NCBI GenBank assembly: GCA_052246995.1
Contig: JBQPWD010000003.1
Coordinates: 1 to 64,000 of the forward strand
Length of the DNA stretch: 64,000 nt
Direction of reading: 5' to 3'
Source of the DNA: Candidatus Bathyarchaeota archaeon
GTDB lineage: Archaea; Thermoproteota; Bathyarchaeia; Hecatellales; Hecatellaceae
Part shown: piece after piece, positions 56,292 through 58,599 of the stretch
Position numbering within the stretch: position 1 is the stretch's first letter
Layout: the number at the start of each line of letters is the position of its first letter
Notes under the pieces: model-generated
What the model saw: only the letters and a program-made list of their open reading frames with translations
Databases searched by the model: none
Told to the model about the DNA's origin: nothing
Position numbers and translations under genes: made by a program

Positions 56292-57461
56292 TTAAACCTT
56301 GCATGATTTAACATTTTTAACAAGATTATCAATAACTTCTTCCACATAATTTTCTTCTACAATTTTTTTTAGTATTTTAACATCTAACTTTTCAATATTT
56401 TGTGGTAAAGTAAACTCAAAGAATTCTTTTTTAACTTCTCTTTCAAATCCTAACTCTTTAATCAGTTTATCTAGCTCTTCACGGGTTAAACCTATGGTTG
56501 GATGAAAAAGTGGCAAGTCTGAAAAATTTTCGAGAATTGTTAAAAATTTTAAGACTTGGATTGGATTGTTTTGTAAATTAAATCCGGTAACAATTCCTAA
56601 ACTATTTTTAACTCTTGCAAATTTACACATAAACTTTATAGCAAGAATTTGCTGTAAAAGCATTTTTAACTCTAAATCCAAGTTTTCAGGTATAGCTTTG
56701 TAAACCATGTTGAAGGGCGCGATAAAAACTCTAAAATTTTTGTATGGAATAAATTCTCTTAGAACATTTATAAATGGAATTTCTTTGCAAAGATTTTCCT
56801 CGTTGGTGTTAAGGTATACTGGTATAGGTGAAACGCCTCTCTTCATCATAAGCCATATTGCTAATGCGTGGTGAGGATTTTTTCCAAGAAAAGTTACAAG
56901 TTTACCTTGGCTGCCAACTGGAAGTCCACCATAACCCTTAAAAATTTTCCAGTAGATATAGCTAAAATCCCCCCTAACTTCAATAAAAAATGTTTTATCA
57001 GATTTTTCTAAGTCAACTTTAACGTTTTTTTCCTTACCAAGTTTTTCAAGTATTTCAGCACCAACTAATTTTTCAATATCCTTACTTGTGTAGGGATGCT
57101 CTCCAACTCTTCTAGCTTTAACAGCAAAGCTTTCGTTAAAGCTTAAAACATTTGAAGCAACACTTAAAGCTAAACCTACAATATCCTTAATGTTTACAGA
57201 TGTTTTAAATACTGGCGCTGTAAAATCTACACCAAAAATTTTAGCTAAAACTTTGCAGGCATCTTCAGCTTTAGCATCCTCAACAAATATTCTTCCACCT
57301 TCCTTGGTAACCTTACCAAAACTTAACCCTGACATTTTAAGCTTATTTTTAACATGGTTTATCAAGATTTTTTCAAGATTTCTTCTAACAATGCTGCTTT
57401 TAAGTAAAATCTCAGAGTAGGATACAAGAATTGTTGAAGTTTCACCTGAAGAACTTGGCAA
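56292..57461 (-). CDS. thiI: ThiI-like THUMP-domain protein with a degenerate PP-loop
   Basis: YSEI.LKS..VR, THUMP (SFAVKARR.G.H, VDL..D), GGLPVGSQGK, WLMMKRG. SGGxDS is replaced by GKNPHH. Confidence 0.75.
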   Translation of the reverse strand: MPSSSGETSTILVSYSEILLKSSIVRRNLEKILINHVKNKLKMSGLSFGKVTKEGGRIFVEDAKAEDACKVLAKIFGVDFTAPVFKTSVNIKDIVGLALSVASNVLSFNESFAVKARRVGEHPYTSKDIEKLVGAEILEKLGKEKNVKVDLEKSDKTFFIEVRGDFSYIYWKIFKGYGGLPVGSQGKLVTFLGKNPHHALAIWLMMKRGVSPIPVYLNTNEENLCKEIPFINVLREFIPYKNFRVFIAPFNMVYKAIPENLDLELKMLLQQILAIKFMCKFARVKNSLGIVTGFNLQNNPIQVLKFLTILENFSDLPLFHPTIGLTREELDKLIKELGFEREVKKEFFEFTLPQNIEKLDVKILKKIVEENYVEEVIDNLVKNVKSCKV

Positions 57462-57544: not shown

Positions 57545-57552
57545 CCTATATA
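57545..57552 (+). promoter_or_regulatory. TATA-like box for the C/D sRNA
   Basis: CCTATATA preceded by a purine-rich BRE-like tract, about 25 nt upstream of the sRNA 5' region. Confidence 0.45.
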
Positions 57553-57573: not shown

Positions 57574-57634
57574 TATGTTGATGAAGAAACCTGACAAGCC
57601 TGATTAAATGAGGAGTCAGAGTTAATCTGAAACA
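57574..57634 (+). ncRNA. Box C/D methylation guide sRNA, both guides predicted to target 23S rRNA domain IV
   Basis: C TTGATGA 57578-57584, D' CTGA 57600-57603, C' ATGAGGA 57608-57614, D CTGA 57627-57630. The guides complement conserved 23S segments CUUGUCGGGU and UAACUCUGAC (recalled consensus). Confidence 0.85.
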
Positions 57635-58278
57635 ATCTTCTTAAGAATATTTTCAATGTTTTTTGCAACTTCCTCTATTTCTTTGTTACCGTCAACGTTT
57701 TTCAGCAAACCCTTTGTTTCATAATAATCTATTAAAGGTTTTGTTTGTTTTCTGTAAACCTCCAACCTATTTCTTATGCTTTCCTCTTTATCATCGTCTC
57801 TCTGGTAAAGTTCTCCGCCGCATTTATCACATCTTCCCGGAAACTTTGGAGGGTTGAATGTTAAATGATAAATTGCACCGCAAGTCTTGCAAACTCTTCT
57901 ATTTGAAAGTCTCCTAATAATCTCTCCTTCGTCAACTTCGAGATTTAAAACAACATCAATTTTACTGTTAATTTCCTTAAGAAACTTATCTAAAGCTTTA
58001 GCTTGAATTAATGTTCTTGGAAAACCATCAAGCAAAAAATTTTTTCCACCAATTTCAGCAAGCTTCTCATTAATAATGCCTATCACAACCTCATCGGGTA
58101 CAAGCTCACCTTTAACCATGTATTCCTTAGCTTTTCTACCAAGCTCGGTTTGCCTAGCTACAGCTTCCCTAAGAATATCTCCAGTAGCTATATGTACAAC
58201 ATTAAACTTTTTAACAATTTTCTCAGCTTGAGTACCTTTACCAGCACCAGGAGGACCAAAAATTATGACATTCATCAC
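57622..58278 (-). CDS. adk: Adenylate kinase, bacterial-type with Zn-binding LID
   Basis: GPPGAGKGTQ, TGDILR, GELVPD, LDGFPRT, CKTC...CDKC, QRDDD. Confidence 0.96.
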   Translation of the reverse strand: MMNVIIFGPPGAGKGTQAEKIVKKFNVVHIATGDILREAVARQTELGRKAKEYMVKGELVPDEVVIGIINEKLAEIGGKNFLLDGFPRTLIQAKALDKFLKEINSKIDVVLNLEVDEGEIIRRLSNRRVCKTCGAIYHLTFNPPKFPGRCDKCGGELYQRDDDKEESIRNRLEVYRKQTKPLIDYYETKGLLKNVDGNKEIEEVAKNIENILKKIVSD

Positions 58279-58344
58279 TAGCTTTTACATACTTAAGATG
58301 TTATCTTTAAAACTTTTGCTTAAAATAAGCTTGGCACTTAACTT

Positions 58345-58406
58345 TTTCTCAGACCTTTCAAGCATCATCATCCAAGTTTGTCAGAATAGCCAAACTCCTC
58401 ATAACA
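58345..58406 (-). ncRNA. Box C/D methylation guide sRNA
   Basis: Minus strand reads ATGAGGA-GTTTGGCTATT-CTGA-CAAACTTGG-ATGATGA-TGCTTGAAAGGT-CTGA. All four boxes are present with 11-12 nt guides in intergenic DNA. Confidence 0.85.
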
Positions 58407-58511: not shown

Positions 58512-58599
58512 GCGGCGGTGACCGAGCCAGGTCAAAGGTGGAGGACTCAAGATCCTCTCCCGTAGGGGTTCGCAGGTTCAAATCCTGCCCGCCGCACCA
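58512..58599 (+). tRNA. tRNA-Leu(CAA), intronless, CCA encoded
   Basis: Acceptor GCGGCGG/CCGCCGC, anticodon arm GAGGA-CT-CAA-GA-TCCTC, long variable arm, GCAGG-TTCAAAT-CCTGC T arm, discriminator A followed by CCA. Confidence 0.97.

Follow-up and report, generated by a model that had tools for sequence, protein, structure and literature searches.

A conserved dual-guide C/D sRNA in a Hecatellales archaeon, predicted to direct methylation at two neighbouring sites of 23S rRNA

Does the short interval between a ThiI/THUMP-domain gene and the adenylate kinase gene (adk) of this archaeon hold a gene for a small RNA, and if so, on what would the RNA act? The question arises near the end of the window (the whole 64-kb stretch of DNA that was analysed), where an earlier note had proposed a double-guide C/D sRNA directed at two ribosomal sites that are also methylated in eukaryotes. 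The boxes, their spacing, the pairing with the organism's own 23S rRNA and the conservation all support that proposal. We consider it very probable, judging from sequence, that 57575-57635 of the forward strand (ends approximate) is a genuine four-box dual-guide C/D sRNA, conserved and ordinary for its class, with methylation as its predicted activity.

The layout of the RNA, which from its sequence should be about 60 nt long, is given in Table 1. The four well-spaced boxes of the earlier note are all present and both guide spacers are exactly 12 nt, although the register of the C box has to be shifted to AUGAAGA. In an alignment of 59 homologues the C-box core UGAnG is invariant at 57582-57586, which sets this register and gives the D′ guide its canonical 12-nt spacer; the CUGA of the D box and the core of the D guide are invariant as well. 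The C box and the C′ box each depart from RUGAUGA once, at position 5, and the D′-C′ linker varies from 2 to 10 nt among homologues. Two other placements of boxes were considered and rejected: with UGAUGA at 57579-57584 as the C box the spacer would be 15 nt, and most homologues have no UGA there, while CUGA at 57591-57594 as the D′ box would leave a spacer of only 3 nt. The two guides are also partly complementary to each other (57588-57626; MFE -13.3 kcal/mol, z -3.0, with 0 of 200 shuffles equally stable). This complementarity, which could compete with target binding, is not retained in the crenarchaeal homologues, whose D′ guides differ.

Table 1. Parts of the predicted C/D sRNA and its flanking features, in window coordinates.
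Feature	Position	Strand	Remarks
ThiI/THUMP-domain gene	56292-57461	-	divergent upstream neighbour
TATA-like hexamer TATATA	57547-57552	+	some 25 nt ahead of the predicted 5′ end
Terminal stem, 5′ half, UGUU	57576-57579	+	pairs with 57631-57634, 4 bp; covariation
First bulge nucleotide of the k-turn, G57580	57580	+	
C box, AUGAAGA	57581-57587	+	register set by the invariant UGAnG columns
D′ guide, 12 nt	57588-57599	+	N+5 is C57595, opposite 23S G2438 (E. coli G1945)
D′ box, CUGA	57600-57603	+	sequence and alignment
D′-C′ linker, UUAA, 4 nt, k-loop	57604-57607	+	
C′ box, AUGAGGA	57608-57614	+	AUGA invariant in the homologue alignment
D guide, 12 nt	57615-57626	+	N+5 is U57622, opposite 23S A2406 (E. 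coli A1913, helix 69 loop)
D box, CUGA	57627-57630	+	invariant in the alignment
Terminal stem, 3′ half, AACA	57631-57634	+	covariation with the 5′ half
adk (adenylate kinase)	57622-58278	-	Pfam ADK, 2.2e-57

The earlier note had drawn its target pairings against consensus rRNA, and both are borne out on the 23S rRNA of this genome, which has a single rRNA operon on contig C5 (23S at C5:189101-192517). Positions N3-N12 of the D guide form 10 contiguous Watson-Crick pairs with 23S 2404-2413, a U:A pair placing A2406 at N+5; the one mismatch of this duplex is at N2. Positions N2-N11 of the D′ guide pair with 23S 2435-2444 through nine Watson-Crick pairs and the single G-U that had been expected, here at N8, with mismatches at N1 and N12 and a C:G pair placing G2438 at N+5. 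G2438 lies 32 nt downstream of A2406. Among 32 tRNAs predicted by ARAGORN the best pairing has 6 Watson-Crick pairs, and tRNA was set aside as a target. The 23S gene itself is 3417 nt long, compared with a 2987-position model; measured against E. coli, its insertions reach 115 nt. The rRNAs (C5:187438-192517) are 58-61% G+C in a genome of 36% G+C, a gap that suggests a thermophile.

A MAFFT alignment to E. coli K-12 rrlH places A2406 at A1913 and G2438 at G1945, as the N+5 rule had predicted, and the stretch between them aligns without gaps. E. coli A1913 is the helix 69 loop adenosine that contacts the decoding centre. The yeast equivalents named in the earlier note stand on unequal ground. 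That of A1913 is in print ('LSU A2256 (E. coli A1913) in H69'; PMC3919601), and Am2256 with snR63, Gm2288 with snR75 and Am2280/2281 with snR13 are tabulated (PMC5199042), whereas the equivalence of yeast G2288 with E. coli G1945 would follow from the 32-nt spacing, which is the same in yeast, E. coli and this archaeon; we found no paper that names both nucleotides. Table 2 of PMC11542601 records methylation of both sites for human (Am3760, Gm3792) and for Arabidopsis, and its Pyrococcus abyssi column is empty for both.

How far could such pairings arise by accident? When a Watson-Crick pair was required at N+5, 1951 of 20000 random genomic 12-mers (9.8%) reached at least 9 Watson-Crick pairs on 16S plus 23S rRNA, and 412 of 20000 (2.1%) reached at least 10; shuffled guides equalled the observed value in 223 of 5000 cases for the D′ guide and in 40 of 5000 for the D guide. 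Each pairing taken singly is only moderately unlikely by chance and would not suffice. The case is carried by the fact that both guides fall on sites 32 nt apart, together with conservation and covariation. A strict four-box regular expression matches the 1.53-Mb genome at 6 sites and the reversed sequence, used as a control, at none. A scan with half guides gave 53 matches against 16 in the reversed control, too noisy a result for counting the sRNAs of the genome.

The RNA is widespread among relatives. When 121 genomes of the class were searched with a covariance model of boxes and stem, 71 of them, this genome (G000) among them, yielded exactly one copy each; so did 9 of the 13 other genomes of the same family. 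Absences in these counts prove nothing where genomes are incomplete. BLAST also recovers homologues in relatives from other genera. A pattern scan in which each prokaryotic species was represented by a single genome yielded 99 loci. Among the 80 of them with listed titles, 7 are labelled bacterial, one of these with the full archaeal architecture, and the remaining listed loci are almost all from Bathyarchaeia (including Hecatellales), Nitrososphaeria, Desulfurococcales/Ignisphaera, Thermoproteales and Brockarchaeota. Of 101 parsed loci, 61 combine four boxes with a D slot occupied by the helix 69 guide. In Nitrososphaeria and some Thermoprotei the helix 69 guide instead occupies the D′ slot, directly behind a C box. 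One record labelled Patescibacteria (L103) holds a complete copy of the bathyarchaeal type and is probably a mis-binned archaeal contig.

The terminal stem covaries. Across the 59 homologues 82.2% of cells are paired, compared with 52.0% after shuffling (0 of 500 shuffles as high) and at most 51% in controls in which the stem was slid. Both sides have changed in 84 cells, and two-sided changes are seen in 5 of 5 pairs, with GUU/AAC in this locus replaced by GCC/GGC or CCG/CGG in other members.

The D′ guide offers a second kind of covariation. The target sequence is CUUGUCGGGU in the organism's own 23S, in G025 and in the 23S copy on contig C3 of G003, and the D′ guide is ACCUGACAAG in the sRNAs of this genome and of G003. 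In the genomes of two crenarchaeal loci, L055 (labelled Desulfurococcaceae) and L043 (labelled Ignisphaera), the 23S reads CUUGCCGGGU and the D′ guides are ACCCGGCAAG and ACCCGGCAA. Among these sequences the D′ guide covaries with its 23S target, in a comparison that covers G000, G003, G025 and the genomes of L055 and L043, the matching stretch having been present in the 23S of only two of five relatives in each of two sets. The RNA occurs in 10 members of the family, and in every one its D′ guide is of the G1945 type with C at N+5; among the 61 four-box loci this type is found in 17, and in 2 more out of register.

A sister variant exists. In 42 of the 61 four-box loci, mostly from other Bathyarchaeia, the D′ guide has the core AAGGCAUU or AAGGUAUU. 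On the organism's own 23S, a core of this type would put A2431 at N+5, not G2438; A2431 corresponds to E. coli A1938 and, by offset, to yeast Am2281. The target region differs in another respect in the same-family relative G003, where one 23S copy carries a 783-nt insertion (G003:C3:2882-3664) with a 186-aa open reading frame and a LAGLIDADG-type motif. The insertion site lies exactly between the two sRNA targets, and the 23S studied here is uninterrupted there; presumably the insertion is an rRNA intron with a homing endonuclease.

Rfam does not recognise the locus. At gathering thresholds the whole 64-kb window returns only the tRNA at 58512-58596, and at E<=10 the segment 57300-57900 returns several C/D families at 12-17 bits, far under their cut-offs, the best being snoPyro_CD (RF00095) at 17 bits against 45. 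Nor does any C/D family reach its gathering score on 20 homologous loci, where the best matches are sR2 (27.9 against 42), sR17 (26.6 against 36) and sR18 (24.4 against 45). These archaeal families (snoPyro_CD; Pyrobaculum sR2, sR17 and sR18) belong to the same class of RNA and are weak full-length matches: this locus scores 17 bits and its crenarchaeal and thaumarchaeal homologues score 24-28 bits, where gathering scores are 36-45 bits. The sRNA family as delimited here is without an Rfam model.

This silence of Rfam, the shortness of the boxes, a genome of 36% G+C and a probability of 2-10% for a single guide match are what could be said for a chance cluster of motifs resembling boxes, in the A+T-rich DNA where a gene ends, with no sRNA gene behind it. 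That reading is contradicted already by the single-copy homologues across the class and the covarying stem, and also by the covariation of guide and target, the six four-box sites against none in reversed sequence, and a conserved promoter position described below; we give it the least credence of all the explanations weighed.

The TATA that the earlier note saw upstream is present, and it coincides with a family-wide feature. When 55 family members are compared, A/T content is highest, at 0.82-0.98, between -35 and -30 from the C box, a position that fits an archaeal TATA box, and the TATATA of this locus falls there. A similar A/T hexamer lies 22-24 nt ahead of the 5′ flank in the relatives G001, G006 and G011. 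The neighbourhood of thiI and the sRNA is retained in the same three genomes; at the G003 locus neither adk nor thiI stands alongside.

At the other end, the sRNA runs antisense to the end of adk, again as first described: its 3′ end lies opposite the last three adk codons and the stop, an overlap of 13 nt (57622-57634) that reaches 5 nt into the D guide. Could the RNA then be an antisense regulator of adk, pairing with the 3′ end of the mRNA or methylating it, with the rRNA match secondary? Lui et al. (PMC6009581) raise this possibility for 3′-antisense sRNAs, and the overlap does cover the stop codon. Yet the arrangement is confined to this genome and its congener G001, tblastn finding no adk beside the sRNA loci of G003, G006, G011 and G025, while the sRNA itself is conserved in the 71 class genomes, and what its guides follow is the sequence of the rRNA and not that of adk. 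Archaeal C/D genes are moreover known to overlap gene 3′ ends in antisense, and of the 47 guides that Pyrobaculum has in this overlap class, 40 still have predicted rRNA or tRNA targets (Lui et al., PMC6009581). The overlap is incidental, and regulation of adk as the main function appears very improbable, if a shade less so than a chance cluster of motifs.

The genome holds other C/D candidates. One four-box candidate lies at 58349-58402 on the reverse strand, between the adk start and the tRNA gene, and has homologues in G001, G006, G007 and G009 in which the boxes and the D guide are conserved. Its D′ guide forms 8 Watson-Crick pairs on the 23S at G2426, between the two sites of the main sRNA; this target is doubtful because only the 3′ half of that D′ guide is conserved. 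Another candidate (L149), at about 163462-163530 on the forward strand of contig C1, has a perfect 7-bp terminal stem and a weak C′ box. It carries a helix 69 guide in the D′ slot with A2406 at N+5, and a D guide with A2431 (E. coli A1938) at N+5. BLAST found no match to it in 20 relatives, and the covariance model of the main sRNA does not match it. Given this candidate, the main sRNA may be redundant at A2406.

Four of 20 sequencing runs were examined, as Logan contigs only, which are uninformative about a 60-nt RNA. Two runs labelled metatranscriptomic (probably DNA) hold the entire stretch inside long contigs. In the two RNA runs contigs cover only parts of adk, of the tRNA and of 58344-58375, the last being conserved in a relative's contig from an RNA library.

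The proteins that such an RNA would need are encoded in the genome. Genes for fibrillarin and Nop5 lie adjacent at C7:69782-71230 (PF01269, 321 bits; PF01798, 237 bits), and L7Ae is encoded at C4:187118-187396 (PF01248, 111 bits). We envisage that the sRNA is transcribed from its own TATA promoter and, by analogy with established archaeal C/D RNPs, that L7Ae would bind the terminal C/D k-turn and the internal C′/D′ k-loop, with Nop5 and fibrillarin assembling on both halves. Each 12-nt guide would then pair with nascent 23S rRNA, and fibrillarin would 2′-O-methylate the nucleotide opposite guide position 5, the predicted products being Am at A2406 through the D guide and Gm at G2438 through the D′ guide. 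Since both targets lie on one short stretch of domain IV, the sRNA would probably also keep the region open or in register during folding.

That added role can be taken further. A real C/D sRNA might serve mainly or only as an rRNA-folding chaperone on the helix 69-71 stretch, leaving one or both sites unmethylated. Targets 32 nt apart suit this reading, and such a pattern is read as chaperone-like by Dennis et al. (PMC4644070) and Lui et al. (PMC6009581), the latter also describing conserved guides incapable of methylating; the G-U in the D′ duplex, the imperfect C′ box and the second candidate sRNA covering A2406 point the same way. Against it, each guide forms a Watson-Crick pair at N+5, none of the ten family members with the RNA has lost the N+5 nucleotide, and yeast, human and plants carry methyl groups at both positions (PMC5199042, PMC11542601). 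Methylation and chaperone action are in any case compatible. We judge a chaperone without one or both methylations improbable, if less so than regulation of adk, and retain a methylation guide with a probable folding role as the preferred reading.

What the analysis adds is the annotation of a non-coding gene that automatic pipelines and Rfam miss, and with it the prediction of ribose methylation at two defined nucleotides in a part of the ribosome that is central to its function, the helix 69 adenosine and a neighbouring site. We found no paper in the searchable literature containing both 'Bathyarchaeota' and 'box sRNA', and few if any C/D guides may have been described before for the uncultured Bathyarchaeia. 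The design and both sites are already known, being in print for Crenarchaeota; new are the member from Hecatellales (Bathyarchaeia) and the family-wide distribution and variants. The family emerges as one copy in most of the Bathyarchaeia searched; its helix 69 guide recurs in Nitrososphaeria and crenarchaeal orders, and its D′ guides alternate between the equivalents of G1945 and A1938. The published picture of a methylation hotspot is extended by a site-level conservation held in common with eukaryotes. A known picture is refined in this way, with no new principle.

A more speculative thought concerns descent. The methylations at A1913, G1945 and A1938 might go back to the archaeal ancestor of eukaryotes, one dual-guide sRNA of which would have given rise, by duplication, to single-guide descendants of the snR63, snR75 and snR13 type. 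We hold this to be unlikely, though less remote than any of the rival explanations above. Were it true, the family, which occurs in Bathyarchaeia, Nitrososphaeria, Desulfurococcales and Thermoproteales, would be the living form of an ancestral intersubunit-bridge sRNA whose guide slots were swapped or exchanged between lineages.

In eukaryotes the corresponding guides are separate, longer, nucleolar snoRNAs that work with Nop56, Nop58 and Snu13. Compared on boxes and guides, to which the comparison is limited, yeast snR63 (Am2256) and snR75 (Gm2288) address the same rRNA nucleotides as this sRNA, and snR13 (Am2280/2281) addresses that of the sister variant. The earlier note had made much of one archaeal RNA serving two sites that yeast assigns to separate snoRNAs. 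That reading is borne out, but it was credited with too much novelty: such a design is the normal one in archaea, and an RNA of the same kind, Ignicoccus hospitalis sR91, was already in print. In Pyrobaculum about 45% of sRNAs have both targets within 100 nt (PMC6009581).

The closest published parallels come from Dennis et al. 2015 (BMC Genomics 16:632, PMC4644070), where helices 68, 69 and 71 of hyperthermophilic archaea are named as a hotspot of methylation and predicted sites crowd around E. coli A1912. In the supplement of that paper sR91 is listed with the targets 23S A2179 and G2211 (numbered in the authors' alignment) and is supported by RNA-seq; because A2178 equals E. coli A1912 in this alignment, the pair corresponds to A1913 and a site 32 nt downstream. 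The supplement also lists at least two further sRNAs aimed at G2211. Like the RNA described here, sR91 runs C box, G1945-equivalent guide, D′ box, C′ box, A1913-equivalent guide and D box (PMC4644070); unlike it, sR91 belongs to a host of the Desulfurococcales, not of the Hecatellales (Bathyarchaeia), and has a longer D′-C′ linker (PMC4644070). Its D′ guide contains ...CUCGGCAAG... and matches the I. hospitalis 23S (PMC4644070). Sulfolobus acidocaldarius sR113 shares the other half: its D guide agrees with the present one in the helix 69 core, CAGAGUUA, in register and hence in the N+5 adenosine, whereas its D′ guide is unrelated to the one found here; with 32156 reads listed, sR113 is highly expressed (PMC4644070). 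The likeness between the bathyarchaeal and crenarchaeal RNAs fits either descent or convergence, since 12-nt guides are constrained by the rRNA that they pair with.
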